In this document: piece after piece, positions 8,991 through 60,223 of the stretch
Layout: every line of letters starts with the position of its first letter
Numbering within the stretch: the stretch's first letter is position 1
Source: Deltaproteobacteria bacterium
Lineage (GTDB): Bacteria > Myxococcota > Kuafuiibacteriia > Kuafuiibacteriales > Kuafuiibacteriaceae
DNA length: 64,000 bases
Assembly: GCA_016713425.1 (NCBI GenBank)
Contig: JADJPE010000005.1
Span: 3,086,143 to 3,150,142 of the forward strand
Direction of reading: 5' to 3'
The notes under the pieces: generated by a model
Seen by the model: only the letters and a program-made list of their open reading frames with translations
The model's database searches: none
What the model was told of the DNA's origin: nothing
Program-made: the position numbers and the translations under genes

Positions 8991-9146
8991 TCCACGTGTG
9001 GGAGGCCCCGCTCGCGCGCGCGACGAAGGACCTCGACTTCCTCGGCCGGCTCGACAACTCGCTCGAGAACCTCGAACGCGTGGTCCGCGAGGTCTGCTCC
9101 GCCGACGTGGAGCCCGACGGCATGGTGTTCGACCCGGCCACGGTGA
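7334..9146 (+). pseudogene. IS91-family transposase TnpA, frameshifted (extra T near 7765)
   Basis: ORF 7334..7780 has the Zn-binding N-terminus (CDRCQREH...FSCKGRAICPSCGARRMQ). ORF 7890..9146 has the HUH-like HLHVLVLDGVF, LCLYAARPP...RLTLRRP, RYAGVLAS and WAKLLARVYSIDGERCLSCGG, then runs through the element end. Confidence 0.6.
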
Positions 9147-19504: not shown

Positions 19505-20800
19505 GGGCGGGCGATTTGTCCGAGCTGCGGTGCACGACGGATGCAGGAGACGGCGGCCCATCTCGTCGATGACGTGCTGCCCGATGTCGCGCTGCGGCAA
19601 TACGTGCTGAGCCCGCCGTTCGAACTGCGCGGTCTTCTCGCGTGCAAACGAGAAGTCTTGGCGAAGATGGTGAACTTTTTCGTTCGGGCGATCTTTGAGC
19701 AACTGACCGACTGGGCTCGATGTCAGGGTCTCACAGGACCGAAATGCGGCGCAGTCACCTTCATTCAGCGATTCACGAAGACCCTGAACATCTCACCCCA
19801 TCTTCATGTGCTCGTTCTCGACGGAGTCTTTGCGAACGAAGAAGAGGGTCCCCGTTTCGTCGAATGCCCAGCCCCAACGAATCGAGACCTTCTTTCGTTG
19901 GCCCAAAGGGTCTTCAAGAAGATGGAGAAATTTCTCGCGAAGAGCGGATATCTCCGAAGCGAGTCGGACGCTCTTGAGGAAGCATCGCTGACACCCGTGG
20001 AGCGCTGGTATGTGCGGGGCCTCGCGGAGCCATCGATGCTGTCGCCAAGTCGCATCGTGGACGTCAAGTCCACGGCGATCGAGTGTGGTGGATTCAGTGT
20101 TCATGCTCAGGTTCGTGTTGCCCAAGGCGATCGACGAGGACGAGAAAGGCTCTGCCTATATGCGGCCCGTCCGCCTTTCGCCGAAGGTCAACTTCGCATG
20201 ACCGATGATGGCCGAGTTCGGCTGACGCTTCGTCGTCCAGCGAAGAACGGCCAGGGTGCGATCGTTCTATCACCGGTTCAGTTTCTGAGGCGCCTCGCGT
20301 GGCTCGTTCCTCCCCGGCGCAGCATCAGGTTCGCTATGCGGGAGTTCTGGCCTCGGCCTCGAAAGTGCGGCGCGCGATTGTCCCAAGGCCCGCACCGGTT
20401 CTTCAGCTCGCCTTCCCGATCGAGAACATGAGGCCTCGGGTTCAGAAACATCGCATGTCGTGGGCCAAACTGTTGGCCCGCGTCTATTCGATTGATGGAG
20501 AGCGCTGCTTGAGCTGTGGCGGCCCACTTAGGCCGATCGGTGCGGTGACTGAATCGAGTCACGTCGCGCAGACTCTCGGTCGGATGCGACGGCAGCGATG
20601 CGCTCGAGATCCCCTCAGCTCGCCCTCGATCTCTGATCGACTCTACAAACCAACCCAAGGTCCCACGCTCCGGGCCTCGGCGCTTCTTGTCCGCGCGGTC
20701 GCACTGCTCGTCCGCTGGGGGGAGAGGTACGTCTGAACGCTGCGCGCAGGCTACGGAACTCAACGGCAGTCCCGTCTTGTGGCGTTCCAAACCGGCCAGA
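19505..20800 (+). pseudogene. IS91-family tnpA distal portion (copy C), separated from its 5' part by IS110
   Basis: ORF 19541..20431 and following frames match the consensus TnpA distal region. Confidence 0.55.
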
Positions 20801-20909
20801 CTGCGCGCAACATGTGACTCGTCGCACACCTGCGTCGGTTCTCCGACTGCTCCGGGCATGGTATCGACGACGCATAGTGAGTCGAAGCCGATTGATTGCC
20901 CTATCGGCC

Positions 20910-24640: not shown

Positions 24641-24955
24641 GCGTAAACGCCGGCCCTTTTGGGGCCTGGCGATGACGGCCTTTCAGGGCCAGCGACGAGG
24701 CCTTTCGGGCCGCGACGGTCCGACGGGTCCGACTTGTTCATTGACGGCTGGACTTCGCGCGACCTACCAGCAGAATCTCGTGAATGGGCAGATCCTCGTG
24801 GACTTGCAGTTCTTGGACGATCAGCAGGCTCCGCTCGACGTAAGGACAAGGAGCCAGTTCGGTGCTTCCCTCTGAGTTCAAACCAAACGCAAGCCCCGCG
24901 CTGAGCGTCGTTCGTTATGCCGACAGCGCAATACCCACCGCGCGCGGCCGGTTCC

Positions 24956-25684
24956 ATCCGCGGCGAGACCGATCCTGAGAAGCTGGTCGACCGCAGGCGT
25001 GGTCGTCTCAAGGCCACGCGAGCTGAGCTCGTCGAAGCCCTGCGCGGTCGCGTCACTCGGAATCATCGCTTTCTTCTCGAGCTTCACTTGAACCAGATCG
25101 ACGCCCTCGACAAGTCGATCGAGAGCGTGGAGAAGGAGGTCGGCGAGCTGCTGGAGCCCTTTCGAGCTGCCGCCGAGCTCCTGAAGACGATCCCAGGCGT
25201 CAGCGATACCGTCGCCGATGTGATCATCGCGGAGATCGGGGTCGACATGTTGCGCTTTCCAACTGCAGGGCATCTCGTTTCCTGGGCAGGTCTCTGCCCT
25301 GGCAATGATGAGAGCGCCGGCAAACGTCGCTCCACTCGCGTTCGAAAAGGATCTCCGTGGCTCAAGACAACGTTGGTCCAAGCGGCATGGGCGGGATCCC
25401 GTACGCGCGGAACGTACCTGCGTACACAGTTCCTGCGCCTCAAGACTCGCCGCGGTCCTAAGAAGGCCATCATGGCGGTCGCCGCATCGATGCTGACCGC
25501 CATCTATTACATGCTCCGAGACTCCGTCCCCTACCGCGATCTTGGCCCCGACTACTTCGACCGCATGGACACGACCAAGGTGACCACCCGCCTGGTTCGC
25601 AGGCTCGAGAGCCTCGGGTTCCATGTCGAGCTCAAGGAGGCATCCTAAGCGAAAACGATCGTCATCAGCCGTGGTTTCGTTCTA
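24956..25684 (+). mobile_element. IS110-family element, 5'-truncated copy 3 (3' ~730 bp only)
   Basis: Homology begins at ...IRGETDPEKL (transposase residue ~180); right junction identical to copies 1 and 2. Confidence 0.7.
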
Positions 25685-27088
25685 GGGGCGGGCGATTTGT
25701 CCGAGCTGCGGTGCACGACGGATGCAGGAGACGGCGGCCCATCTCGTCGATGACGTGCTGCCCGATGTCGCGCTGCGGCAATACGTGCTGAGCCCGCCGT
25801 TCGAACTGCGCGGTCTTCTCGCGTGCAAACGAGAAGTCTTGGCGAAGATGGTGAACTTTTTCGTTCGGGCGATCTTTGAGCAACTGACCGACTGGGCTCG
25901 ATGTCAGGGTCTCACAGGACCGAAATGCGGCGCAGTCACCTTCATTCAGCGATTCACGAAGACCCTGAACATCTCACCCCATCTTCATGTGCTCGTTCTC
26001 GACGGAGTCTTTGCGAACGAAGAAGAGGGTCCCCGTTTCGTCGAATGCCCAGCCCCAACGAATCGAGACCTTCTTTCGTTGGCCCAAAGGGTCTTCAAGA
26101 AGATGGAGAAATTTCTCGCGAAGAGCGGATATCTCCGAAGCGAGTCGGACGCTCTTGAGGAAGCATCGCTGACACCCGTGGAGCGCTGGTATGTGCGGGG
26201 CCTCGCGGAGCCATCGATGCTGTCGCCAAGTCGCATCGTGGACGTCAAGTCCACGGCGATCGAGTGTGGTGGATTCAGTGTTCATGCTCAGGTTCGTGTT
26301 GCCCAAGGCGATCGACGAGGACGAGAAAGGCTCTGCCTATATGCGGCCCGTCCGCCTTTCGCCGAAGGTCAACTTCGCATGACCGATGATGGCCGAGTTC
26401 GGCTGACGCTTCGTCGTCCAGCGAAGAACGGCCAGGGTGCGATCGTTCTATCACCGGTTCAGTTTCTGAGGCGCCTCGCGTGGCTCGTTCCTCCCCGGCG
26501 CAGCATCAGGTTCGCTATGCGGGAGTTCTGGCCTCGGCCTCGAAAGTGCGGCGCGCGATTGTCCCAAGGCCCGCACCGGTTCTTCAGCTCGCCTTCCCGA
26601 TCGAGAACATGAGGCCTCGGGTTCAGAAACATCGCATGTCGTGGGCCAAACTGTTGGCCCGCGTCTATTCGATTGATGGAGAGCGCTGCTTGAGCTGTGG
26701 CGGCCCACTTAGGCCGATCGGTGCGGTGACTGAATCGAGTCACGTCGCGCAGACTCTCGGTCGGATGCGACGGCAGCGATGCGCTCGAGATCCCCTCAGC
26801 TCGCCCTCGATCTCTGATCGACTCTACAAACCAACCCAAGGTCCCACGCTCCGGGCCTCGGCGCTTCTTGTCCGCGCGGTCGCACTGCTCGTCCGCTGGG
26901 GAGAGGTACGTCTGAACGCTGCGCGCAGGCTACGGAACTCAACGGCAGTCCCGTCTTGTGGCGTTCCAAACCGGCCAGACTGCGCGCAACATGTGACTCG
27001 TCGCACACCTGCGTCGGTTCTCCGACTGCTCCGGGCATGGTATCGACGACGCATAGTGAGTCGAAGCCGATTGATTGCCCTATCGGCC
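25685..27088 (+). mobile_element. IS91-like distal portion, copy D, downstream of the truncated IS110
   Basis: tnpA from GRAICPSCGARRMQ (ORF 25722..26612 onward); terminus at 27088. Confidence 0.6.
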
Positions 27089-28577: not shown

Positions 28578-30064
28578 ACTGCGGGATCTTGGAACGCGGG
28601 TTCGTCCTTCTTTTCTGCGACCGATGCCAGCGTGAGCATGCTGTGGCCTTTTCGTGCAAGGGGCGGGCGATTTGTCCGAGCTGCGGTGCACGACGGATGC
28701 AGGAGACGGCGGCCCATCTCGTCGATGACGTGCTGCCCGATGTCGCGCTGCGGCAATACGTGCTGAGCCCGCCGTTCGAACTGCGCGGTCTTCTCGCGTG
28801 CAAACGAGAAGTCTTGGCGAAGATGGTGAACTTTTTCGTTGGGGCGATCTTTGAGCAACTGACCGACTGGGCTCGATGTCAGGGTCTCACAGGACCGAAA
28901 TGCGGCGCAGTCACCTTCATTCAGCGATTCACGAAGACCCTGAACATCTCACCCCATCTTCATGTGCTCGTTCTCGACGGAGTCTTTGCGAACGAAGAAG
29001 AGGGTCCCCGTTTCGTCGAATGCCCAGCCCCAACGAATCGAGACCTTCTTTCGTTGGCCCAAAGGGTCTTCAAGAAGATGGAGAAATTTCTCGCGAAGAG
29101 CGGATATCTCCGAAGCGAGTCGGACGCTCTTGAGGAAGCATCGCTGACACCCGTGGAGCGCTGGTATGTGCGGGGCCTCGCGGAGCCATCGATGCTGTCG
29201 CCAAGTCGCATCGTGGACGTCAAGTCCACGGCGATCGAGTGTGGTGGATTCAGTGTTCATGCTCAGGTTCGTGTTGCCCAAGGCGATCGACGAGGACGAG
29301 AAAGGCTCTGCCTATATGCGGCCCGTCCGCCTTTCGCCGAAGGTCAACTTCGCATGACCGATGATGGCCGAGTTCGGCTGACGCTTCGTCGTCCAGCGAA
29401 GAACGGCCAGGGTGCGATCGTTCTATCACCGGTTCAGTTTCTGAGGCGCCTCGCGTGGCTCGTTCCTCCCCGGCGCAGCATCAGGTTCGCTATGCGGGAG
29501 TTCTGGCCTCGGCCTCGAAAGTGCGGCGCGCGATTGTCCCAAGGCCCGCACCGGTTCTTCAGCTCGCCTTCCCGATCGAGAACATGAGGCCTCGGGTTCA
29601 GAAACATCGCATGTCGTGGGCCAAACTGTTGGCCCGCGTCTATTCGATTGATGGAGAGCGCTGCTTGAGCTGTGGCGGCCCACTTAGGCCGATCGGTGCG
29701 GTGACTGAATCGAGTCACGTCGCGCAGACTCTCGGTCGGATGCGACGGCAGCGATGCGCTCGAGATCCCCTCAGCTCGCCCTCGATCTCTGATCGACTCT
29801 ACAAACCAACCCAAGGTCCCACGCTCCGGGCCTCGGCGCTTCTTGTCCGCGCGGTCGCACTGCTCGTCCGCTGGGGGAGAGGTACGTCTGAACGCTGCGC
29901 GCAGGCTACGGAACTCAACGGCAGTCCCGTCTTGTGGCGTTCCAAACCGGCCAGACTGCGCGCAACATGTGACTCGTCGCACACCTGCGTCGGTTCTCCG
30001 ACTGCTCCGGGCATGGTATCGACGACGCATAGTGAGTCGAAGCCGATTGATTGCCCTATCGGCC
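28578..30064 (+). mobile_element. IS91-like element, copy E; 5'-truncated within the tnpA Zn-binding region
   Basis: Homology begins at ...CGILERGF; ORF 28484..29587 and following; terminus at 30064. Confidence 0.6.
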
Positions 30065-34081: not shown

Positions 34082-34891
34082 TTCATGCTCAGGTTCGTGT
34101 TGCCCAAGGCGATCGACGAGGACGAGAAAGGCTCTGCCTATATGCGGCCCGTCCGCCTTTCGCCGAAGGTCAACTTCGCATGACCGATGATGGCCGAGTT
34201 CGGCTGACGCTTCGTCGTCCAGCGAAGAACGGCCAGGGTGCGATCGTTCTATCACCGGTTCAGTTTCTGAGGCGCCTCGCGTGGCTCGTTCCTCCCCCGG
34301 CGCAGCATCAGGTTCGCTATGCGGGAGTTCTGGCCTCGGCCTCGAAAGTGCGGCGCGCGATTGTCCCAAGGCCCGCACCGGTTCTTCAGCTCGCCTTCCC
34401 GATCGAGAACATGAGGCCTCGGGTTCAGAAACATCGCATGTCGTGGGCCAAACTGTTGGCCCGCGTCTATTCGATTGATGGAGAGCGCTGCTTGAGCTGT
34501 GGCGGCCCACTTAGGCCGATCGGTGCGGTGACTGAATCGAGTCACGTCGCGCAGACTCTCGGTCGGATGCGACGGCAGCGATGCGCTCGAGATCCCCTCA
34601 GCTCGCCCTCGATCTCTGATCGACTCTACAAACCAACCCAAGGTCCCACGCTCCGGGCCTCGGCGCTTCTTGTCCGCGCGGTCGCACTGCTCGTCCGCTG
34701 GGGGAGAGGTACGTCTGAACGCTGCGCGCAGGCTACGGAACTCAACGGCAGTCCCGTCTTGTGGCGTTCCAAACCGGCCAGACTGCGCGCAACATGTGAC
34801 TCGTCGCACACCTGCGTCGGTTCTCCGACTGCTCCGGGCATGGTATCGACGACGCATAGTGAGTCGAAGCCGATTGATTGCCCTATCGGCC
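34082..34891 (+). mobile_element. IS91-like 3' fragment, copy F
   Basis: Homology from ttcatgctcagg; ORF 34180..; terminus at 34891, followed by tccacg as at copy A. Confidence 0.6.
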
Positions 34892-35647
34892 TCCACGCCG
34901 ACCGCGCCGTCCTTGCGCGTCCTCCGATACGCTTCGCGCAGGAGGTCCACATCGATGAGGTGGGCGAGCGTCGTCATCACCATCTGCGGCGCTTGCCTCG
35001 CCAGTTTCGCTGTCCGCTCGAGTTTCGTTGTGACGCTGATTGGACTCGATGTTCCTGGCATCTTTCCTCCGAGCGGTCCCGTGACCCGGCGCCTCTTTCC
35101 CTCAGCCGGGTCCCCTGGGGAGAGTTCCCCGGCTTCCTCGGTACAGTGAGGCGCTCCGACTCCCGACCATCCCTCCCGCCGCGCTTCGTTTCCTTCGCTT
35201 GGCGGTACCTGCGTTGTGCTCGTCATTTGCTCCCGCGGGCCCGAGCACTGGCGCCCCGCGAGCCTGGACCCCTTGTTCCGACGGTCCGAGCCGGGTCGAA
35301 ACAGGAGACGGTCGGGCCTCCCAGGTTCCTGGGGATCCCATTTCCATGCGTATGCCGTGCTCTCAGACCCCGGCGGGACCTCGGCGCCTCGCCCAAACGG
35401 CGCTCCGGTGTCGCCGCCGTGCCAAACAACGCCGACGGCTCCCGCGACCCATAGATTTCGAGGCTCAATCACACAGCCTTCGCACTCCCTGTGTACGCTT
35501 CGCAGCCGAGGTCGCCCTCCGGCCACGCAACACTCGGTTCCGGTGGGTGGCTAGCCCTTGCCGGGCGGGGCTCCTCCCCGCTGGGGTCCGACGAGAAGTT
35601 TCAGCCTGTCATCTGCATCCCCTTCTCCCAGGCTTCGCCTGGCGCAC
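34892..35647 (-). mobile_element. Putative group II intron 5' segment, truncated within the start of its reverse-transcriptase ORF
   Basis: Minus strand begins GTGCGCC (GUGYG-like) at 35647; ~670 nt downstream an ORF starts ...LIDVDLLREAYRRTRKDGAVGV (RT domain-0-like), cut by copy F at 34891. Confidence 0.45.
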
Positions 35648-35665
35648 TGATTGCCCTATCGGCCT
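35648..35665 (+). repeat. Isolated terminal 18 bp of the IS91-like 3' end, abutting the putative intron 5' end
   Basis: ctgattgccctatcggcc; the same juxtaposition occurs inverted at 54023..54040. Confidence 0.5.
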
Positions 35666-40156: not shown

Positions 40157-40326
40157 CTGCGCGCAGGCTACGGAACTCAACGGCAGTCCCGTCTTGTGGC
40201 GTTCCAAACCGGCCAGACTGCGCGCAACATGTGACTCGTCGCACACCTGCGTCGGTTCTCCGACTGCTCCGGGCATGGTATCGACGACGCATAGTGAGTC
40301 GAAGCCGATTGATTGCCCTATCGGCC
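40157..40326 (+). mobile_element. IS91-like 3'-terminal 170-bp fragment, copy G
   Basis: Begins ctgcgcgcaggctacggaactcaacgg, ends ...gattgattgccctatcggcc at 40326. Confidence 0.6.
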
Positions 40327-44624: not shown

Positions 44625-45351
44625 GGATGGATGTTACCCATTTCTGAATCGGTCCCACCCGAAAAGTCGGAGCACGAAAGCCTCGTTCCGTTCACCGGGA
44701 GGTGCTTGAGGTCCCGGTCCTCGAACTTCAGGCGGACTGCCCAGCGAGCTCATAGGTGGACGTAGGTCGATCGGGCGAGATGCGCCCTACCGGACGCCTC
44801 CCATGCACACGCAGCCGATGATGTCGGCGCTGTCCCTTCGCACCGAAGCCGTCTGGCAGCGGGCGATCGATGAAGCGCGCGGGGCGTACCGGTGCCGAGC
44901 ACTTCCGCAACCCGGACGATGACCTACGCGGCGGCATCGAGCTCGTTGGGGACGAAACCACGCTTGCGAGTCGCAGCCAACGTGGGCATGAGCTTGTCCG
45001 TCAGCGCAGCGAGGAAGTCCGAAATTCGACGAAGACACGAACAAACGAGCGCCATTGCCGAGGCCTTCCGTGACGGCATGAAACGAGCTCATGGCGCGTT
45101 GTGTGCGCGCAAGCGGTTTCCGAATACAAACCACGAAAACCGGAGTCGGGAATCCTGCATTGCCTCGTCTCGACCCACTTTGACGAGTTTGTCGAAAGTT
45201 TTGAGGACCCAGATTCCCCCGAGTCCGGGTTGCCGACATTTGTCCGCAAAGAGTTTGAACGATTCCTCGACTGCGGGATCTTGGAACGCGGGTTCGTCCT
45301 TCTTTTCTGCGACCGATGCCAGCGTGAGCATGCTGTGGCCTTTTCGTGCAA

Positions 45352-46844
45352 GTTCGCCATGTCCGGACGGACACCCCGTGGCATGAAACTGGTAGGATGC
45401 GCCGCGTTGGTGGTGGCACAGAGATCGGCGTTTCCTTGGTGCTTCAGCCCGTGTGCAAGTTGGATCCGGAGCTCTACGAGCACCCCGTACTGCGCCATGG
45501 AGTCCGCCTATGCGGCTTCGGGAGCGCGCGTTCTAGATTTCGATCACGAGAGCTCCACGCCATCACCGACAGGAGTGTGTGGTGGAAGTTCTTCATGCCC
45601 GTTGCGCGGGGCTCGACGTTCACAAGGACACGGTCGTGGCCTGCATTCGAATCGCATCCAAAGGAACAGCGACGCAAGATGTGCGAACTTTCCAGACGAC
45701 GACTTCGCAGTTGTTGGCGTTGTCTGACTGGCTGAGCGAACAAGAGGTGACACATGTCGCGATGGAGGCGACGGGCGTCTACTGGAAGCCGGTTTGGCAC
45801 ATCCTCGAGGAGTCGTTCGAGCTCGTCCTCGCGAACGCCGCCCATATCAAGAACGTTCCCGGGCGCAAGACCGACGTGAACGACGCGATGTGGATCTCGG
45901 ATTTGCTCGCACATGGTCTGATCCGAGGCAGCTTCGTTCCGGAGGCATCCATCCATGAGCTACGCGCGCTCACGCGAACGCGCAAGCAGCTCGTCCGTGA
46001 GAAAGCCCAGCACATGCAGCGGATTCAGAAGACGCTCGAGGATGCGAACATCAAGCTCGCATCGGTGATCACGGACATTCTCGGAATGACGGGACGCGGG
46101 ATCCTCGAAGCTCTCATCCGCGGCGAGACCGATCCTGAGAAGCTGGTCGACCGCAGGCGTGGTCGTCTCAAGGCCACGCGAGCTGAGCTCGTCGAAGCCC
46201 TGCGCGGTCGCGTCACTCGGAATCATCGCTTTCTTCTCGAGCTTCACTTGAACCAGATCGACGCCCTCGACAAGTCGATCGAGAGCGTGGAGAAGGAGGT
46301 CGGCGAGCTGCTGGAGCCCTTTCGAGCTGCCGCCGAGCTCCTGAAGACGATCCCAGGCGTCAGCGATACCGTCGCCGATGTGATCATCGCGGAGATCGGG
46401 GTCGACATGTTGCGCTTTCCAACTGCAGGGCATCTCGTTTCCTGGGCAGGTCTCTGCCCTGGCAATGATGAGAGCGCCGGCAAACGTCGCTCCACTCGCG
46501 TTCGAAAAGGATCTCCGTGGCTCAAGACAACGTTGGTCCAAGCGGCATGGGCGGGATCCCGTACGCGCGGAACGTACCTGCGTACACAGTTCCTGCGCCT
46601 CAAGACTCGCCGCGGTCCTAAGAAGGCCATCATGGCGGTCGCCGCATCGATGCTGACCGCCATCTATTACATGCTCCGAGACTCCGTCCCCTACCGCGAT
46701 CTTGGCCCCGACTACTTCGACCGCATGGACACGACCAAGGTGACCACCCGCCTGGTTCGCAGGCTCGAGAGCCTCGGGTTCCATGTCGAGCTCAAGGAGG
46801 CATCCTAAGCGAAAACGATCGTCATCAGCCGTGGTTTCGTTCTA
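45352..46844 (+). mobile_element. IS110-family insertion sequence, copy 2, at the identical site within IS91-like tnpA
   Basis: Same junctions as copy 1 (offset 27341 bp); apparently identical. Confidence 0.8.
45579..46808 (+). CDS. IS110-family transposase
   Basis: 409-aa ORF identical in translation to 18238..19467. Confidence 0.9.
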   Translation: MVEVLHARCAGLDVHKDTVVACIRIASKGTATQDVRTFQTTTSQLLALSDWLSEQEVTHVAMEATGVYWKPVWHILEESFELVLANAAHIKNVPGRKTDVNDAMWISDLLAHGLIRGSFVPEASIHELRALTRTRKQLVREKAQHMQRIQKTLEDANIKLASVITDILGMTGRGILEALIRGETDPEKLVDRRRGRLKATRAELVEALRGRVTRNHRFLLELHLNQIDALDKSIESVEKEVGELLEPFRAAAELLKTIPGVSDTVADVIIAEIGVDMLRFPTAGHLVSWAGLCPGNDESAGKRRSTRVRKGSPWLKTTLVQAAWAGSRTRGTYLRTQFLRLKTRRGPKKAIMAVAASMLTAIYYMLRDSVPYRDLGPDYFDRMDTTKVTTRLVRRLESLGFHVELKEAS

Positions 46845-46845
46845 G

Positions 46846-48273
46846 GGGCGGGCGATTTGTCCGAGCTGCGGTGCACGACGGATGCAGGAGACGGCGGCCC
46901 ATCTCGTCGATGACGTGCTGCCCGATGTCGCGCTGCGGCAATACGTGCTGAGCCCGCCGTTCGAACTGCGCGGTCTTCTCGCGTGCAAACGAGAAGTCTT
47001 GGCGAAGATGGTGAACTTTTTCGTTCGGGCGATCTTTGAGCAACTGACCGACTGGGCTCGATGTCAGGGTCTCACAGGACCGAAATGCGGCGCAGTCACC
47101 TTCATTCAGCGATTCACGAAGACCCTGAACATCTCACCCCATCTTCATGTGCTCGTTCTCGACGGAGTCTTTGCGAACGAAGAAGAGGGTCCCCGTTTCG
47201 TCGAATGCCCAGCCCCAACGAATCGAGACCTTCTTTCGTTGCCCCAAAGGGTCTTCAAGAAGATGGAGAAATTTCTCGCGAAGAGCGGATATCTCCGAAG
47301 CGAGTCGGACGCTCTTGAGGAAGCATCGCTGACACCCGTGGAGCGCTGGTATGTGCGGGGCCTCGCGGAGCCATCGATGCTGTCGCCAAGTCGCATCGTG
47401 GACGTCAAGTCCACGGCGATCGAGTGTGGTGGATTCAGTGTTCATGCTCAGGTTCGTGTTGCCCAAGGCGATCGACGAGGACGAGAAAGGCTCTGCCTAT
47501 ATGCGGCCCGTCCGCCTTTCGCCGAAGGTCAACTTCGCATGACCGATGATGGCCGAGTTCGGCTGACGCTTCGTCGTCCAGCGAAGAACGGCCAGGGTGC
47601 GATCGTTCTATCACCGGTTCAGTTTCTGAGGCGCCTCGCGTGGCTCGTTCCTCCCCCGGCGCAGCATCAGGTTCGCTATGCGGGAGTTCTGGCCTCGGCC
47701 TCGAAAGTGCGGCGCGCGATTGTTCCAAGGCCCGCACCAGTTCTTCAGCTCGCCTTCCCGATCGAGAACATGAGGCCTCGGGTTCAGAAACATCGCATGT
47801 CGTGGGCCAAACTGTTGGCCCGCGTCTATTCGATTGATGGAGAGCGCTGCTTGAGCTGTGGCGGCCCACTTAGGCCGATCGGTGCGGTGACTGAATCGAG
47901 TCACGTCGCGCAGACTCTCGGTCGGATGCGACGGCAGCGATGCGCTCGAGATCCCCTCAGCTCGCCCTCGATCTCTGATCGACTCTACAAACCAACCCAA
48001 GGTCCCACGCTCCGGGCCTCGGCGCTTCTTGTCCGCGCGGTCGCACTGCTCGTCCGCTGGGGGAGAGGTACGTCTGAACGCTGCGCGCAGGCTACGGAAC
48101 TCAACGGCAGTCCCGTCTTGTGGCGTTCCAAACCGGCCAGACTGCGCGCAACATGTGACTCGTCGCACACCTGCGTCGGTTCTCCGACTGCTCCGGGCAT
48201 GGTATCGACGACGCATAGTGAGTCGAAGCCGATTGATTGCCCTATCGGCCTATCGGCCTCGGGGCCCTCATGA
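46846..48273 (+). pseudogene. IS91-family tnpA distal portion (copy H), longest uninterrupted frame
   Basis: ORF 46882..48273 (463 aa) covers the HUH and Y2 regions and reads through the element terminus; 5' part (45101..45351) is separated by IS110. Confidence 0.6.
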
Positions 48274-50385: not shown

Positions 50386-51235
50386 TCACCGGTGCCGACC
50401 GCTTCCGCAACCCGGACGAGGACCTACGCGGCGGCATCGACCTCGTTGGGGACGAAACCACGCTTGCGAGTCGCAGCCAACGTGGGCATGAGCTTGTCCG
50501 TCAGCGCAGCGAGGAAGTCCGAAATTCGAAGATCAACTTCGCATGACCGATGATGGCCGAGTTCGGCTGACGCTTCGTCGTCCAGCGAAGAACGGCCAGG
50601 GTGCGGTCGTTCTATCACCGGTTCAGTTTCTGAGACGCCTCGCGTGGCTCGTTCCTCCCCCGGCGCAGCATCAAGTTCGCTACGCGGGCGTTCTGGCCTC
50701 GGCCTCGAAAGTGCGGCGCGCGATTGTCCCAAGGCCCGCACCGGTTCTTCAGCTCGCCTTCCCGATCGAGAACATGAGGCCTCGGGTTCAGAAGCGTCGC
50801 ATGTCGTGGGCCAAACTGTTGGCCCGCGTCTATTCGATTGATGGAGAGCGCTGCTTGAGCTGTGGCGGCCCACTTAGGCCGATCGGTGCGGTGACTGAAT
50901 CGAGTCACGTCGCGCAGACTCTCGGTCGGATGCGACGCCAGCGATGCGCTCGAGATCCCCCTCAGCTCGCCCTCGATCTCTGATCGACTCCACAAACCAA
51001 CCCAAGGTCCCAAGCTCCGGGGCTCGGCGCTTCTTGTCCGCGCGGTCGCACGGCTCGTCTGCCGGGGGAGAGGTACGTCTGAACGCTGCCCGCAGGCTAC
51101 AGAACTCAACGGTAGTCCCGTCTTGTGCCGTTCCAAGCCGGCCAGACTGCGCGCAATATGTGACGCGCCGCACACCTGCGTCGGTTCTCCGACTGCTCCG
51201 GGCATGGTCGAAGCCGATTGATTGCCCTATCGGCC
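50386..51235 (+). mobile_element. IS91-like element, copy I, with a large internal deletion
   Basis: 5' part from tcaccggtg joined at ~50529 to the tnpA distal region (...LRMTDDGRV); 20-bp deletion near the terminus shared with copy K. Confidence 0.6.
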
Positions 51236-51251
51236 TCGTCTGCTGAGGGCT

Positions 51252-51443
51252 GAGGGAGAGGTACGTCTGAACGCTGCGCGCAGGCTGCGGAACTCAACGG
51301 CAGTCCCGTCTTGTGCCGTTCCAAACCGGTCAGACTGCGCGCAAGACGTGACTCGTCGCACACCTGCGTCGGTTCTCCGACTGCTCCGGGCATGGTATCG
51401 ACGACGCATGGTGAGTCGAAGCCGATTGATTGCCCTATCGGCC
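51252..51443 (+). mobile_element. IS91-like 3'-terminal fragment, copy J
   Basis: Terminus at 51443 followed by the same tatcggcc duplication as copy H. Confidence 0.55.
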
Positions 51444-51529
51444 TATCGGCCTTCACCCCCCACGTACTCGGCTTGGCTGAACCTCGTGGAGCGCTTCTTC
51501 GCCCTGCTCTCCGCATGGACTCATTGCAC

Positions 51530-54022: not shown

Positions 54023-54101
54023 GGCCGATAGGGCAATCAGTGCGCCAGGCGAAGCCTGGGAGAAGGGGATGCAGATGACAGGCTGAAACTTCTCGTCGGA
54101 C
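54023..54101 (+). mobile_element. Inverted IS91-like terminal 17 bp followed by ~62 bp matching the putative group II intron 5' end
   Basis: ggccgatagggcaatca + gtgcgccaggcgaagcctggg... matches the minus strand of 35586..35665, then diverges. Confidence 0.4.
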
Positions 54102-54383
54102 CACCTTGGCGCAACTGGCGAATACAGCCACCGCTTCAAGGGCGAAGACGGTGCCTCTTTCGGGCTGCAAGCAGGCGTGGTCGTTCCAGTGATACTTCTC
54201 TTTCGCGATCTCGGGTTGGGCCGCATCCATTGATGGACATTATTGTGCAACCGTTGGGAAGAGTGTGCTCATGGACAGCATCGATTCAACCTGGTTTTCG
54301 AAGCATTTGCGGGGACGAGAAGAGCTTGCCGACCTGACTGTCGTCGAGATCACCCTCGACCGTGTACGGTCCTTGTTGGCCGG

Positions 54384-56255
54384 CATGCACACGCAGCCGA
54401 TGATGTCGGCGCTGTCCCTTCGCACCGAAGCCGTCTGGCAGCGGGCGATCGATGAAGCGCGCGGGGCGTACCGGTGCCGAGCACTTCCGCAACCCGGACG
54501 ATGACCTACGCGGCGGCATCGAGCTCGTTGGGGACGAAACCACGCTTGCGAGTCGCAGCCAACGTGGGCATGAGCTTGTCCGTCAGCGCAGCGAGGAAGT
54601 CCGAAATTCGACGAAGACACGAACAAACGAGCGCCATTGCCGAGGCCTTCCGTGACGGCATGAAACGAGCTCATGGCGCGTTGTGTGCGCGCAAGCGGTT
54701 TCGGAATACAAACCACGAAAACCGGAGTCGGGAATCCTGCATCGCCTCGTCTCGACCCACTTTGACGAGTTTGTCGAAAGCTTTGAGGACCCCGATTGCC
54801 CTGAGTCCGGGTTGCCGACATTCGTCCGTAAAGAATTCGAAGGATTCCTCGACTGCGGGATCTTGGAACGCGGTTTCGTCCTTCTCTTCTGCGACCGATG
54901 CCAGCGTGAGCATGCTCTGGCCTTTTCGTGCAAGGGGCGGGCGATTTGTCCGAGCTGCGGTGCACGACGGATGCAGGAGACGGCGGCCCATCTCGTCGAT
55001 GGCGTGCTGCCCGATGTCGCGCTGCGGCAATACGTGCTGAGCCCGCCGTTCGAACTGCGCGGTCTTCTCGCGTGCAAACGACAGGTCTTGGCGAAGATGG
55101 TGAGCTTCTTCGTTCGGGCGATCTTTGAGCAACTGACCGGCTGGGCTCGATGCCAGGATCTCCCAGAACCGAAATGCGGCGCCGTCACCTTCATTCAGCG
55201 ATTCACGAAGACCCTGAACATCTCACCCCATCTTCACGTGCTCGTTCTCGACGGAGTCTTCGCGAACGAAGAAGAGGGTCCCCGATTCGTCGAATGCCCA
55301 GCCCCAACGAATCGAGACCTTCTCTCGTTGGCTCAAAGCGTTTTCAAGAAGATGGAGAAATTTCTCGCGAAGAGCGGATATCTCCGAAGCGAGTCGGACG
55401 CTCTTGAGGAAGCATCGCTGACACCATTGGAGCGCTGGTATGTGCGCGGCCTCGCGGAGCCATCGATGCTCTCGCCAAGTCGCATCGTGGACGTCAAGTC
55501 CACGGCAAGCAAGGCTCTGCCTATATGCGGCCCGTCCGCCCTTCGCCGAAGATCAACTTCGCATGACTGATGATGGCCGAGTTCTGCTGACGCTTCGTCG
55601 TCCAGCGAAGAACCGCCAGGGTGCGATCGTTCTATCACCGGTTCAGTTTCTGAGACGCCTCGCGTGGCTCGTTCCTCCCCCGGCGCAGCATCAGGTTCGC
55701 TACGCGGGCGTTCTGGCCTCGGCCTCGAAAGTGCGGCGCACGATTGTGCCAAGGCCCGCACCGGCTCTTCAGCTCCCCTTCCCGATCGAGAACATGAGGC
55801 CCCGGGTTCAGAAACGTCGCATGTCGTGGGCCAAACTGTTTGCCCGCGTCTATTCGATTGATGGAGAGCGCTGCTTGTCGTGTGGCGGCCCGCTTAGGGC
55901 GATCGGTGCGGTGACTGAATCGAGTCACGTCGCAGAGACTCTCGGTCGGATGCGACGGCCGCGATGCGCTCGAGATCCCCCTCAGCTCACCCTCGATCTC
56001 TGATCGACTCCACAAACCAACCGAAGGGCCCAAGCTCCGGGGCTCGGCGCTTCTTGTCCGCGCGGTCGCACGGCTCGTCCGCTGGGGGAGAGGTACGTCT
56101 GAACGCTGCCCGCAGGCTACGGAACTCAACGGCAGTCACGTCTTGTGCCGTTCCAAACCGGCCAGGACTGCGCGCAACATGCGACGCGTCGCACACCTGC
56201 GTCGGTTCTCCGACTGCTCCGGGCATGGTCGAAGCCGATTGATTGCCCTATCGGC
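54384..56255 (+). mobile_element. IS91-like element, copy K; divergent subfamily with internal deletions
   Basis: Same left boundary as copy H; ~65-bp internal deletion near 55510 and the 20-bp terminal-region deletion; ORFs 54683..55570 and 55440..56003. Confidence 0.6.
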
Positions 56256-56499
56256 TGGAGCGCTCCCCAAAAACGGCCCACCCGTGCTCTCGAGAAGCAG
56301 TCCACCCGACGCTGTGGAGGGTGTGCGACGAGATGCTGGCTGAGGTCGCCGCCGTCTGATAGTCGAAATGAGCGGGGCAGAAGTTGGGGTCGGAGGTAGA
56401 AGCTCCGAGCCCCTGTGTCTCCACAAGGCCGTGGGCGACGTATCGTCGTCGCATAGAGGGGCCTCGTAGTCCAGCTTCCCCTTTGCCCCGCCCAAGGCC

Positions 56500-56859
56500 G
56501 TGTCGATCAGGATCTGGGCAATCAAGTGTTTGGATTGTGGGCGTAGGTTCTTGCTGTGTCGTGGATGCTTCCACGGTCAGCGATACTGCTCAGGTGAATG
56601 CCGCTCGCGATCTCGTCGCCGGCAGTGCCGCGAAGCGCAGGCTCGGTATCTCGCGAAGCGCAAGGGCCGGGTTCGAAGAGCCGCGGCGTCAGCCGCGTAC
56701 CGCGGGCGCGTCCAAGATCTCGGCGAATCTCGAGGGGAGAAGTTGATTCGTCATAGATCAGGGTGTCGGAGCCTGCCGCGTTTCGAGGCACAAGTTCTCC
56801 CGTCTACGGCCTGCTGCGAGCGGTGCGGTGGTTATGGCCCCGTACGTGAGTGGCACTGA
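56500..56859 (+). CDS. Cys-rich zinc-ribbon-like protein
   Basis: GTG start; CLDCG...CRGC...CSGEC...CCERCGG; ends 19 nt before the ParB-like gene. Confidence 0.35.
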   Translation: MSIRIWAIKCLDCGRRFLLCRGCFHGQRYCSGECRSRSRRRQCREAQARYLAKRKGRVRRAAASAAYRGRVQDLGESRGEKLIRHRSGCRSLPRFEAQVLPSTACCERCGGYGPVREWH

Positions 56860-56877
56860 CGCAAGAGCGGGTGTGCG

Positions 56878-57825
56878 ATGGAGTTGGAGATCGGTCAGCT
56901 TGAGCTTCGCTACGAGAAGCTACGGCGGAGGAACGCGCGCAAGGAACGGCAACTGGTCGGCTCACTCGCGGAGAAGGGGCAGCTTCTGCCTGTCGTGGTG
57001 GTGCGTGGCGACGACGCCAGGCATGTACTCGTTGATGGCTACAAACGCGTTCGAGCGCTGAAGTCGTTGCGGCATGACTTGGTGCGCGCAACCCTATGGG
57101 AGCTGGGCGAGCTTGAGGCTGTGTTGCTCGAGCGGCTAATGCGGACGAGCGAATCGGACGGTGCTCTTGAGCAAGGCTGGCTCCTGGAGGACCTCAACGA
57201 GCGCTTTGGTCTCTCCCTCGCCGAACTGTCGCGGTGCTTCGACAAGAGCCAGAGCTGGGTGAGCCGCCGTTTGGCTCTGGTTCGAGCGTTGCCTCGGGAG
57301 GTTCAAGACCGGGTGCAAAGTGGGTCGCTCGGAGCGCATGCGGCGATGAAATACCTCGTGCCGATGGCGCGCGCCAAACGTTCGGATTGCTTGCGCCTCG
57401 TCAAGAGCCTCGCGGATGGCCGACCGAGCACGCGGGAGGTCGGTGCACTCTATGCAGCCTGGGTTTCGGGCAACGCGAAGACGCGCGAGCTCGTGGTGAC
57501 TCAGCCCTTCGTGGTTCTTCGATTGCGAGAGCAGGCAGCTCCCCTCGTCGATTCGGCTTCCGAGAAGAGGCTCTTCAGAAAGCTTGTTGATGACTTCGGT
57601 ATCCTCATCGGAACAAGCCGACGGGCTCGAACAAGACTCAAAGAGGGTGCGCTGTCTGGGCTGGTTCCGCCTGAGGCGTTGGACCTTCAGCATGCCACAC
57701 AGCAAGCGAAGTGGGAGTGCGAGTCGCTGTTTCGGTCAGCGCTCTCGCTTCTGATGCACCGCACCTCGCAGTCAAGCGTCGAAGGCGTCGAGAGCGCCAC
57801 TTTGGAGGCCATTGATGCTGGATGA
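56878..57825 (+). CDS. ParB/Srx N-terminal-domain protein
   Basis: LPVVVVRGDDARHVLVDGYKRVRALKSL matches the ParB-like nuclease-domain core; 3' end overlaps istA by 14 nt. Confidence 0.55.
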   Translation: MELEIGQLELRYEKLRRRNARKERQLVGSLAEKGQLLPVVVVRGDDARHVLVDGYKRVRALKSLRHDLVRATLWELGELEAVLLERLMRTSESDGALEQGWLLEDLNERFGLSLAELSRCFDKSQSWVSRRLALVRALPREVQDRVQSGSLGAHAAMKYLVPMARAKRSDCLRLVKSLADGRPSTREVGALYAAWVSGNAKTRELVVTQPFVVLRLREQAAPLVDSASEKRLFRKLVDDFGILIGTSRRARTRLKEGALSGLVPPEALDLQHATQQAKWECESLFRSALSLLMHRTSQSSVEGVESATLEAIDAG

Positions 57826-59245
57826 GCATCAACGAATCGCCATCCTCGAGCTCGCGAAGAAGGGGTTCGGTAGTCGCCGTATCGCCCGCGCGCTCAATCT
57901 CTCGCGAAGCGCTGTGCGATCCGTGGTGGAGAGCGGAACGGCTCCGCCGCCCAGGATTGTTCGGCCAGAGAAGGCGGCCGAGTATCATGACGCCATCGTT
58001 GAGCTGCACGTACGCTGCAAGGGCAACTTGGTTAGGGTCCATGAAGAGCTGGAGAAGAAGGGCGCCAAGCTCTCCTACCAGGCACTCACGGCGTTCTGCC
58101 GCCGGCACGAGATCGGCCACACCCCAAAGCGCCCATCCGGACGCTATGAGTTTGCGCCCGGCGAAGAGATGCAACATGACACCTCGCCACACCAAGCCCA
58201 AATAGGCGGGCGATTGCGCAAGGTGCAGATCGCCTCGCTCGTGATGTGCTACTCGCGGATGCTCTTCGTTCAGATCTACCCCTGCTTCACCCGCTTCGAG
58301 TGCAAGGTCTTCCTCACCGACGCGCTTGAGTACTTCGGCGGAGCGGCGGGGCGATGTATGATCGACAACACCAACGTCGTTCGACTCAAGGGCACGGGCA
58401 AAGAGATGGTGCCTGTGCCCGAAATGTCCGCGTTCGGTGAGCGATTCGGGTTCGTCTTCGTGGCGCACGAGGTTGGCGATGCCAATCGCTCGGCACGGGT
58501 CGAGAACCCGTTCAAATGGGTGCAGAGGAATTTCCTCGTCGGGCGGGAGTTCTCCGATTGGGACGACGTCAACATGCAGGCGCGGTCCTGGTGCGAGGAG
58601 AAGAACGCCGCGCGAAGCCCGAAACTTCACGCTACGCGCCGAGAGCTGTTTGCCGCCGAACGGCCGCGTCTCAAGGCCCTGCCGATCTTCATACCCGAGG
58701 TCTATGTCCTGCATCAGCGGTTCGTCGATGCCGAGGGCTACGTCAGCGTTCGGCGTAACCGCTACTCGGTTCCCTACAAGCTCATCGGAAGGCAAATGGA
58801 GGTGCGCGAGAGTAAGCAACGCATCGACATCTTCGAGGGTCCGCGCCAGGTGGCAACGCATAAGCGTGTCGTCGATCCGCTCGACGTGCGCGTAACCAAG
58901 CCCGAACATCGTCCGCTCCGAGGCGAGGGTCGACGCAAAACCGAACCACCGGCAGAGCAAGCGGAGCTGTTGGCGACAGCTCCCGAACTGGCGAACTACG
59001 TGGCTGCGCTCAAGCAACGCGCTTACGGGCGTGGCGTGAAGGTGCTTCGATGCCTGCTACGCATGGTTCGTGAGTATCCCCGCGAGGCCTTGATGCCTGC
59101 CCTGCAAACCGCCGAAGCCTACGGTCTATACGACCTCGACCGCGTCGAGCGGATGATTCTGCGCCAGATAGCACGCGATTACTTCATTCTGTCCGACCCG
59201 GACGACGAGGACTACCCACCCGTCGAGGAGAACCAAGATGAATGA
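57812..59245 (+). CDS. istA: IS21-family transposase IstA
   Basis: N-terminal HTH, DDE core, typical length (477 aa). Confidence 0.85.
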   Translation: MMLDEHQRIAILELAKKGFGSRRIARALNLSRSAVRSVVESGTAPPPRIVRPEKAAEYHDAIVELHVRCKGNLVRVHEELEKKGAKLSYQALTAFCRRHEIGHTPKRPSGRYEFAPGEEMQHDTSPHQAQIGGRLRKVQIASLVMCYSRMLFVQIYPCFTRFECKVFLTDALEYFGGAAGRCMIDNTNVVRLKGTGKEMVPVPEMSAFGERFGFVFVAHEVGDANRSARVENPFKWVQRNFLVGREFSDWDDVNMQARSWCEEKNAARSPKLHATRRELFAAERPRLKALPIFIPEVYVLHQRFVDAEGYVSVRRNRYSVPYKLIGRQMEVRESKQRIDIFEGPRQVATHKRVVDPLDVRVTKPEHRPLRGEGRRKTEPPAEQAELLATAPELANYVAALKQRAYGRGVKVLRCLLRMVREYPREALMPALQTAEAYGLYDLDRVERMILRQIARDYFILSDPDDEDYPPVEENQDE

Positions 59246-59963
59246 CGATCTCTCTCAGCTTTTTAGCTGCTTGAAGCTGAACAAGATTGCCGAGATCTTC
59301 GACGATGAGCTCGCGAAAGCCGACAAGCAACATACTCCATTCAGTAAACTCTTCGCGCGCCTCTTGCGTGCCGAATGGCACGCACGGCAGGAAAGCGCGC
59401 TTGCGTGGAGAATCAAGAGGGCTTCTCTGCCGGAGCCGTGGACGCTCGAGAGCTTCCCATGGAAGAAGCAACCCAGCGTACCGCAACGCAAGCTCCGCGA
59501 ACTCGCCGAGCTCGAATTCATCGGACGCGCAGAGAACATCGTGTTCATCGGACCAACTGCTGTTGGCAAAAGCGGTCTCGCGATGGGCTTGCTGCTCAAG
59601 GCTCTGCAGAACGGCTATCGCGGGGTCTTCATGCCGGCCCAGGACCTCTTCGATGAAATGTACTCGTCGCTCGCGGACCGTTCTACCCCGCGGCTGCTCA
59701 ACCGCCTCGCTCGCCTCGACGTCTTGGTGATCGACGAAATGGGCTATCTCAACCTGAGGCCCGAGCAGAGCAACATCTTCTTCAAGTTGATGCACCTTCG
59801 GTATCGGCGGCGACCGACGATCATCACGACGAATCTCGACTACCCCGAGTGGGCCTCCTTCCTCGGAAATCCCAAGATGGTAGAGGCCTTGCTCAGCCGT
59901 GTGCGACACCAGTGTCACACGATCAAGATCGACGGTCCGCCCCTGCGTGAGCCTCAGAGCTGA
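59238..59963 (+). CDS. istB: IS21-family helper ATPase IstB
   Basis: Walker A GPTAVGKSGLA and Walker B VLVIDEMGYL; 8-nt overlap with istA. Confidence 0.85.
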   Translation: MNDDLSQLFSCLKLNKIAEIFDDELAKADKQHTPFSKLFARLLRAEWHARQESALAWRIKRASLPEPWTLESFPWKKQPSVPQRKLRELAELEFIGRAENIVFIGPTAVGKSGLAMGLLLKALQNGYRGVFMPAQDLFDEMYSSLADRSTPRLLNRLARLDVLVIDEMGYLNLRPEQSNIFFKLMHLRYRRRPTIITTNLDYPEWASFLGNPKMVEALLSRVRHQCHTIKIDGPPLREPQS

Positions 59964-60223
59964 GAATCTAACCTTACCCTCTCCGTGCGCTGTCAGTCCC
60001 TCGACGCTCTTGCCTCCTCCCGCACGTTCACAACTCCGTTCTCGATGTGGACTGGTTCTGCAGAGCAGAAGTGGACTGCTTTTCATGAGCGCCACAGCTA
60101 TCGGCCCTCTGAGATTGGCTCTGTTTACCTCGCTGAGCTCCGGCGTTCAGTTTCGGTTCTGGTTTTCATTCAGAATCTAGTTTTCGATTGTCAATCTAGC
60201 CCTGATCTCTAGAAGAGGGGCCC

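Follow-up and report, generated by a model that had tools for sequence, protein, structure and literature searches.

A probable intact four-gene IS21-family element carrying ParB-like and cysteine-rich protein genes upstream of istA and istB

Insertion sequences (IS) of the IS21 family provide the structural model of how a dedicated AAA+ ATPase controls a transposase. According to the ISfinder description, they carry two genes in ~1.75–2.6 kb, have the termini 5'-TG...CA-3' and produce target duplications of 4–8 bp. In the transposition route established for IS5376, IstA binds repeated sites in the element ends and performs cleavage and strand transfer, while ATP-bound IstB captures and bends the target DNA and activates IstA; tandem end junctions are also used by IS21. 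ParB proteins, in turn, are the model for CTP-gated DNA clamps. The arginines of their arginine box contact the phosphates of CTP, and the E of the GERR motif and the N of the ENxQR motif are needed for its hydrolysis. Here we describe a locus that joins the two systems, located in a 64-kb stretch (hereafter the window) of contig JADJPE010000005.1 from a 'Deltaproteobacteria bacterium'. Positions 56255..60097 of the window (3,843 bp) very probably represent one intact copy of an autonomous IS21-family element, belonging to a deep-branching clade of elements with four genes. All four genes, coding for a Cys-rich protein, a ParB-like protein, IstA and IstB, are co-oriented and are enclosed by terminal inverted repeats and a target duplication.

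Boundaries, genes and relatives of the element

The left terminal inverted repeat (CTGGAGCGCTC...; 56255..56308, + strand) contains sub-repeats at 56260-56281 and 56284-56305, and the right one (...GAGCGCCACAG; 60045..60097, − strand) contains sub-repeats at 60047-60068 and 60071-60092. The repeats are 53 nt long and imperfect, with two sub-repeats of ~22 nt per end that are presumed to be IstA binding sites; between 56254-56305 and 60047-60098 they form an inverted repeat of 52 nt with 73% complementarity. An identical 7-mer, CTATCGG, abuts both ends as a target-site duplication (56248..56254 and 60098..60104). A profile built from 16 end sequences of related elements, none taken from the window, has only two matches in the 64 kb, at 56259-56308 (+ strand, E = 4e-9) and at 60095-60046 (− strand, E = 8e-11), and this search finds only one copy of the element in the window. 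Furthermore, a Logan contig from a separate assembly of the same sample (L114, 99.9% identical) starts exactly at 56255, the break point expected because copies of a repeat diverge there. The C at 56255 is readable as an eighth duplicated base. We assign it to the element because the termini of the family begin with CT and L114 begins at this position.

An earlier note on this DNA, made from the sequence of the window, had proposed that an inverted motif places the four genes inside one ~3.8-kb element. The motif is real (AAGCAGTCCAC at 56295-56305, with its complement at 60071-60081; the chance expectation of an exact 11-mer complement is ~0.015 per 64 kb), but the pairing joins the inner left sub-repeat to the outer right one. 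The single element holds, while the limits then given, 56285..60085, lie ~30 nt inside the left end and 12 nt inside the right end.

The same architecture of repeated sub-terminal sites is observed in 144 distinct ends of relatives, with the consensus CTTCGGCGCTCGcCAgAAgTGACCCA....TGCTC..CAaAAgTG..CCA. The best-conserved DNA of the family is the terminal 11 bp (consensus CTTCGGCGCTC), with 1.45 versus ~0.93 bits per position. The window element terminates in CTG...CAG, with TG and CA one base inward, and the clade consensus is CTTC...GAAG. In GenBank, the identical ParB-like protein is found under three accessions on one 7.3-Mb contig of the 'Deltaproteobacteria bacterium' metagenome-assembled genome (MAG), IstB under three and IstA under two, which we read as pointing to three copies of the element in the source genome.

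The four genes follow one another closely on the + strand. The gene for the Cys-rich protein (56500..56859; 119 aa), which has a homologous open reading frame (ORF) at the equivalent position in relatives, is separated by 18 nt from the gene for the 315-aa protein of ParB/Noc/KorB type (56878..57825), recognized by profile matches in the Protein Data Bank (PDB) and by Foldseek. The istA gene, encoding the DDE transposase (57815..59245; 476 aa from the ATG at 57815), overlaps the ParB gene, and istB, encoding the AAA+ helper ATPase (59238..59963; 241 aa), overlaps istA by 8 nt. All four co-oriented ORFs named in the earlier note are present. It rightly placed the ParB gene just 3' of the Cys-rich ORF, at a distance of 19 instead of 18 nt, and its 14-nt overlap of istA with the ParB gene applies to an in-frame TTG at 57812, the overlap being 11 nt from the ATG at 57815 used as the GenBank protein start. 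A GGAGG is located 7 nt before the istA start, within the ParB gene, and a Shine–Dalgarno-like GGAG is present in the 3' end of this gene in the window copy and most relatives checked. A hairpin over the istA start was discarded as a candidate; it is found in the window and in one relative (L117) only, is not conserved and is a product of the codons ATG..CAT.

IstA reaches 165 bits against the NCBIfam model of IS21 transposases (NF033546, cut-off 160) and matches Pfam Mu-transpos_C_2 (5e-16) and IS5376 IstA (8b4h/8q4d; E = 1e-15). Its catalytic D (MQHD), D (IDN) and E (RVEN) align with the MQVD, FDN and KVER motifs of IS5376, and the exact protein is labelled 'IS21 family transposase' in GenBank. 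IstB scores 210.8 bits against NF038214 (cut-off 200) and 2.7e-56 against Pfam IstB_IS21, and it matches IS5376 IstB (8q3w) over the full length (E = 1.3e-38), with a Walker A motif GPTAVGKS and a Walker B motif VIDE. Both proteins thus exceed the NCBI cut-offs for IS21 and match their IS5376 counterparts.

Its transposase, helper protein, ends and duplication place the element in the IS21 family, and its gene number, size and termini place it in a variant subgroup there. An IstA with helix–turn–helix (HTH), DDE core and C-terminal barrel, an IstB encoded directly downstream, ends with repeated sites and a short target duplication are all found here, whereas TG...CA termini and a two-gene format of ~1.75–2.6 kb are not. 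Because of its family membership, the element should transpose by the ordinary IS21 route.

Relatives were collected in two ways. With the ParB-like protein as query and one genome per species, 32 loci were obtained, from hosts that include Acidobacteriota, Myxococcota, Proteobacteria, Chloroflexota, Gemmatimonadota, Krumholzibacteriia and Dissulfurispiraceae. IstA and IstB are encoded directly downstream in 28 of these loci, and the other four are truncated or rearranged, one of them (L024) with an IstA–IstB pair nearby on the opposite strand. IstA as query against metagenome contigs gave 80 loci with 57–67% identity. The ParB-like gene stands immediately upstream of IstA in every locus with at least 1 kb of upstream sequence (58/58), and no IstA-selected locus with more than 400 nt of upstream room lacks it. 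In addition, a small Cys-rich ORF, intact in one frame, precedes the ParB gene in 71 related loci. Both the ParB gene and the small ORF are constant components of this clade.

Paired ends were located in 46 loci by the profile search, which was used instead of a generic local-alignment search that gave many false pairs in GC-rich DNA. These elements measure 3.7–4.6 kb, and their left end always lies upstream of the small ORF. The target duplication, 7 bp in the window element, is 6–8 bp in eight relatives with reliable flanks, the nine reliable duplications being CTATCGG (window), GACATCGG, CACTGGG, CTCAAGCC, CTCTGCGG, GACAGT, TCCTGGC, CCACTGT and TCATCCAA. A search for relatives that lack both upstream genes and have an end located between ParB gene and istA found none among the 58 IstA-selected loci or the 46 paired-end elements. 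Two of the checks proposed in the earlier note, the mapping of ends and duplications in other copies and the conservation of ParB-like gene and istAB in relatives, support its idea of an IS21 derivative with accessory genes, in which repeats and duplication enclose four genes; the arrangement marks a whole clade and not a single odd copy. Recent activity of the clade is apparent in a Bryobacterales MAG that contains two copies of 4,080 bp, identical to each other, with different flanks and clean 8-bp duplications.

The clade is large and widespread in soil and sediment bacteria. Homologs of the ParB-like protein number more than 4,200, mostly on contigs of 3.5–5 kb, and the family comprises at least 332 clusters at 50% identity with E < 1e-30. 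No relatives were found among 2.9 million viral contigs. The sole relative among 72,556 plasmids, a distant one, is a four-gene element on plasmid pHRM2a of Desulforapulum autotrophicum HRM2 (NC_012109, ~11.8–15.5 kb; 28–30% identical). The same plasmids yield more than 5,000 IstA matches, the best of which are at most 30% identical to the IstA of the window, and the two best-matching plasmid IS21 elements that were inspected carry only istA and istB. A gene with a CHC2 zinc finger of the primase type directly follows the IstB-like gene of pHRM2a (L033 7116–7652; NC_012109 11315–11851). A remnant of a close relative (L115 844–2297; L116 580–2033) lies between an AbiEii gene and a cluster similar to CBASS, the cyclic oligonucleotide-based antiphage signaling system (SMODS, patatin); it retains the left end, the Cys-rich ORF and a ParB gene that breaks off at residue 254, and has no IstA or IstB. 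A literature search in bioRxiv and 7.7 million PMC papers yielded no description of an IS21–ParB element (ISfinder lay outside this search, so that an entry there is possible), and the GenBank names of the element proteins are generic only. The four-gene group is apparently undescribed.

The ParB-like protein, the Cys-rich protein and the leader

The ParB-like protein is composed of an N-terminal ParB domain, an HTH domain and, towards the C terminus, a helical region specific to the clade (approximately residues 200–300). A profile of 25 family members, searched against the PDB, matches Noc (7ol9, E = 2.7e-13), Caulobacter ParB (6t1f, E = 2e-12) and Spo0J (6sdk, E = 3e-12) over residues ~21–193 and aligns through the HTH of Noc and ParB. 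The best Foldseek matches of the AlphaFold2 (AF2) model are Spo0J, ParB-CTPgammaS, Noc and KorB, and the HTH part of the model resembles the DNA-binding domains of ParB, Noc and KorB. The mean predicted local distance difference test score (pLDDT) of the model is 74.5, with values above 90 for the HTH and the C-terminal helices. The window protein falls below the Pfam cut-offs for ParB_N (19 bits, cut-off 26.3), which is recorded for most homologs, and for HTH_ParB (22.4 bits, cut-off 22.6). Having an N-terminal ParB domain with an arginine box followed by a ParB-type HTH, the protein is, as judged from its sequence, a true relative of ParB, Noc and KorB.

An invariant D53-G-Y-K-R-x-R59-A aligns with the GERRxRA box (GERRWRA in Noc and Caulobacter ParB), and E85-R-x-x-R89 aligns with ENxQR. 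Compared with ParB, the basic K/R residues are kept, whereas the E of GERR is replaced by Y55 and the N of ENxQR by R86. Because the basic residues are retained and E and N are lost, these motifs suggest that the protein binds nucleotide and hydrolyzes it little or in an altered manner. Across the family, the HTH helix FDKSQSWVSRRLALV hardly varies, which points to a DNA target common to the clade.

The small Cys-rich protein, referred to below as the Zn protein, contains the invariant cysteines C10, C13, C20, C30, C34, C106 and C109. In its AF2 model (pLDDT 87), the cysteines are located on N- and C-terminal β strands, and residues 32–74 form a basic helical hairpin; a fold search against the PDB returned no solved structure that is alike. 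Homologs of the window-type ORF in relatives occupy the equivalent position with 52–66% identity, with dS saturated, dN of 0.32–0.43 and a median dN/dS of 0.20. A profile search gathered 267 proteins, all unnamed and none with Pfam domains. DUF6076 reaches a sub-threshold 19.7 bits with the window protein (cut-off 23.5) and has no match in five related small ORFs. Most relatives carry a different small ORF of ~144 aa (KRPCxICRxWF...NPDY...LPWDLA), which has no more in common with the window type than the N-terminal CxxC..F..Q..C...C pattern, in a weak profile alignment. In a collection of 15 billion proteins the Zn protein of the window is absent and the three downstream proteins are present, suggesting that its ORF was not called in the source record.

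Members of the Zn-protein family are also encoded directly upstream of, and overlapping, other recombinase genes (L124 309–3033; L123 5001–6612; P0289 contig). The neighbor in Hyalangium gracile is an IS21-type IstA–IstB pair without ParB, whose IstA is 25% identical to that of the window. Other neighbors are an rve-type transposase and a large serine recombinase, and in the latter case the Zn motif is tandemly duplicated. The Zn protein appears to be an accessory module that mobile elements use promiscuously.

Between the left end and the Zn-protein gene, elements of the window-type subgroup share a conserved non-coding leader of ~190 nt (56333..56452, + strand) that appears to be structured. 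It was recognized by DNA conservation in six related elements, whose indels do not come in multiples of 3. It contains a mini-ORF, MLAEVAAV*, that ends in TGATAG (56333-56362; 7–8 codons in the subgroup) and two hairpins, GGGGTCGGAG..CTCCGAGCCCC at 56386-56413 and GCGACG..CGTCGC at 56434-56452. RNAalifold proposes 61 pairs, 15 of them with compensatory change, in an alignment that represents only ~4–5 independent lineages. No Rfam family reaches its gathering score in the element, and a sigma-70 promoter scan of the element, uninformative for this high-GC organism, found none. In the more common subgroup, the small ORF has its start codon within a conserved palindrome, ATGGTGACnnnnnGTCACCATG (ATGGTGAC-n5-GTCACCATG; for example, L003 520–546, L004 186–208 and L071 255–278), which could be a translation-blocking hairpin or an operator. 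Leader and start-codon palindrome could both limit the translation of read-through transcripts.

Role of the two upstream genes

Across 59 elements, the pairwise identities of ParB and IstA are correlated with r = 0.96 (Mantel 0/999), compared with r = 0.94 for IstA and IstB. The median dN/dS is 0.15 for ParB, 0.125 for IstA and 0.078 for IstB; ParB and IstA are under similar purifying selection. Because the two upstream genes are invariably present and share the operon of the transposase, and because ParB co-diverges with IstA, we infer that their products act in the life cycle of the element itself and are not cargo. More specifically, we tentatively favor, at somewhat less than even confidence, a ParB-like protein that acts on the element DNA as a regulator or cofactor.

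Such a protein would, as a dimer, recognize element DNA through its nearly invariant HTH, perhaps at the conserved termini. Two abutting ends, such as those in tandem IS21 junctions, form the palindrome GAGCGCCGAAG joined to CTTCGGCGCTC, a possible target for a dimer. Closure of the N-terminal domain, gated by nucleotide, could then turn the ParB-like dimer into a clamp or bridge, which might set the timing of istAB expression, or determine when and where the IstA–IstB complex assembles. Autoregulation, pairing of the ends or immunity of nearby DNA are conceivable outcomes, and the Zn protein may be a partner or adaptor of the ParB-like protein. The more detailed proposal that a ParB-type clamp loads at the ends or the abutted-end palindrome, spreads or bridges in cis and communicates with IstB we consider doubtful, at about one chance in four. 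If true, it would give the element distance-limited control, as in transposition immunity, end pairing or target choice, which to our knowledge has been described for no IS; these would be the first transposons with their own ParB-type nucleotide-switch clamp, and the ParB fold would have a new job.

Several observations weigh against a role of this kind, or against parts of the overall picture. Residues 1–74 of the ParB-like model have a pLDDT below 50, so that nucleotide binding is argued from the motifs. A ParA-like gene was sought among the ORFs and domain matches of the element and none was found; likewise, no parS-like palindrome is conserved in position in 47 elements, and the window copy has four weak palindromes. 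With neither ParA nor parS found, a ParABS partition system was rejected. The link between the two upstream proteins and transposition is itself indirect, and co-divergence and purifying selection would also fit a linked gene that aids persistence in another way. The Zn-protein family, found beside unrelated recombinases and a ParB-less IS21 pair, is not specific to a partnership with ParB. Finally, many short metagenome contigs lack a target-site duplication, probably owing to unreliable flanks from collapsed repeats.

The two proteins might alternatively select targets, binding a feature of host or plasmid DNA and recruiting IstB as TnsD and TniQ do for TnsC and TniB. IstB, matched here to IS5376 IstB, is one of the AAA+ target-capture regulators, a class that also includes TnsC and TniB. 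TnsD and TniQ are zinc-finger and HTH proteins of Tn7-like elements, and a pair of Zn-binding and HTH proteins is encoded upstream of the transposase here; moreover, the window copy occupies the terminal 7 bp of an element that a group II intron has also entered twice within ~20 nt. We nevertheless regard target selection as unlikely: the nine reliable duplications share no motif, flanks differ between copies, and domain scans of the element proteins reveal no similarity to TniQ or TnsD. The simplest alternative, an ordinary two-gene IS21 that happens to lie beside an unrelated ParB gene, with a coincidental motif, would suit the textbook composition of the family and a window crowded with mobile elements. 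It has next to no probability and is refuted by the 58/58 linkage of IstA and ParB, by paired ends that enclose four genes and are homologous to the ends of more than 40 other elements, by the end profile, and by the break of L114 exactly at 56255.

It is also quite improbable, in our estimate, that the genes serve as cargo or aid persistence, helping the element or its carrier through silencing, plasmid positioning, or interference with competitors or defense. ParB-family proteins, including the KorB of the fold matches, do act in plasmid maintenance and gene silencing, and interference with competitors or defense is what the ParB/Srx protein Osa provides for plasmid pSa. One remnant lies beside CBASS and AbiEii genes, and, as cited in PMC12839542, nuclease or ATPase functions in conflicts are known for ParB/Srx proteins. 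On the other hand, there is no ParA, copies are found on contigs too long for typical plasmids, and relatives number 0 in 2.9 million viral contigs and 1, a distant one, in 72,556 plasmids. Cargo normally varies between related elements, whereas the ParB gene is fixed in every relative examined, lies upstream of the transposase gene and overlaps it, and is as closely coupled to IstA in its divergence as IstB is. A role of the ParB-like protein on the element DNA itself is the reading that we retain, with the reservations given above.

The surroundings of the element are rich in other mobile DNA. The copy is inserted in the terminal bases of a degenerate IS91-family copy (54384..56254, + strand; frameshifted, with Zn_Tnp_IS91 and Y2_Tnp Pfam matches), which lies outside the element, and the duplicated CTATCGG is the IS91-type end. 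About ten copies or fragments of this one IS91-family element (Zn_Tnp_IS91 and Y2_Tnp) are present in the 64 kb, at 7121-8991, 14425-15117 (− strand), 17865-20909, 24955-27088, 28578-30064, 34082-34892, 40157-40326, 44802-48250, 50388-51452 and 54384-56254. They share the 3' end ...TTGATTGCCCTATCGGC and are cut off at differing points on the 5' side, a pattern that fits rolling-circle (one-ended) transposition. An IS110-family element (DEDD_Tnp_IS110 and Transposase_20; 45353-46834, ORF 45579-46808) is nested in three of these copies, including those at 17865-20909 and 24955-27088. At two IS91-type ends, 48242-48257 and 51435-51450, the terminal 8-mer is tandemly doubled (CTATCGGCCTATCGGC); this is apparently no excision footprint of the IS21-type element, as the 8-nt period does not match the 7-bp duplication. 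A group II intron (35358-35648, − strand; Rfam RF02005, 144 bits) starts, with GTGCG, immediately behind GGCCGATAGGGCAATCA, which is the IS91-type terminus in complement, and a second, truncated copy of the 5' end of the intron lies in another such terminus (54040-54102, + strand). The last ~20 nt of the IS91-type element have therefore received two insertions of the intron and one of the IS21-type element.

Comparison with known systems

A clade in which an IS21 module and a ParB gene are permanently joined in one operon lends itself to direct study of clamp regulation in transposition. It spans Acidobacteriota, Myxococcota, Proteobacteria, Chloroflexota, Gemmatimonadota and others, and it bears on annotation, since its ParB genes carry the label of chromosome-partition proteins and the Zn-protein gene is apparently left uncalled, so that mobile DNA passes for housekeeping genes. 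A definition of IS21 by two genes, less than 2.6 kb and TG...CA ends would have to be widened. The occurrence of the Zn protein upstream of other transposases and a serine recombinase may reflect an accessory module that is general among mobile elements and so far unstudied.

With canonical IS21 elements (IS21, IS5376, IS100, IS408 and IS1631), the clade shares an IstA with HTH, DDE core and C-terminal barrel, an overlapping downstream IstB, long repeats with sub-sites, and a duplication in the range of 4–8 bp. In contrast, it has four genes in 3.7–4.6 kb, compared with two in ~1.75–2.6 kb, and its termini are CT...AG (consensus CTTCGGCGCTC), whereas those of canonical elements are usually TG...CA. 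The ParB-like and Zn-protein genes are obligatory in the clade, and the IstA of the window shares at most 30% identity with any of more than 5,000 plasmid-borne IstA matches. The pHRM2a element, the only relative found on a plasmid of a cultured organism, has the same gene order (Cys-rich hypothetical protein, ParB, IstA-like and IstB-like), with only 28–30% identity; its IstA-like protein falls below the NCBI cut-off for IS21 and is annotated only as an HTH protein.

The ParB-like protein has the N-terminal arginine-box domain followed by a ParB-type HTH that characterizes the CTP-dependent clamps ParB, Noc and KorB. Unlike these, it is encoded by a transposon, without ParA and with no parS-like site found, and it has DGYKRxRA in place of GERRxRA and ERxxR in place of ENxQR. 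Its C-terminal third (residues 200–300) is helical and family-specific and lies outside the span that matches PDB entries (~21–193). KorB of plasmid RK2 is a ParB-family clamp that its small partner KorA turns into a repressor, and the KorB–KorA co-complex (8qa9) is among the fold matches of the ParB-like protein. In both cases, a ParB-family protein is encoded on a mobile element beside a small protein of DNA-binding type. KorB and KorA control the genes of their own element, and any likeness of the window pair to them would be functional only, given that KorA is an HTH protein, whereas the partner in the window is Cys-rich and has no solved relative.

Tn7, Tn5053 and Mu likewise combine a DDE transposase, an AAA+ regulator of target DNA and element-encoded DNA-binding proteins. 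The additional factors of these systems (TnsD, TniQ and the Mu repressor) decide where or when transposition occurs. In domain scans, the extra proteins of the window element show no sequence relation to them, and the element differs further in having IS21-type ends and neither TnsA nor a resolvase.

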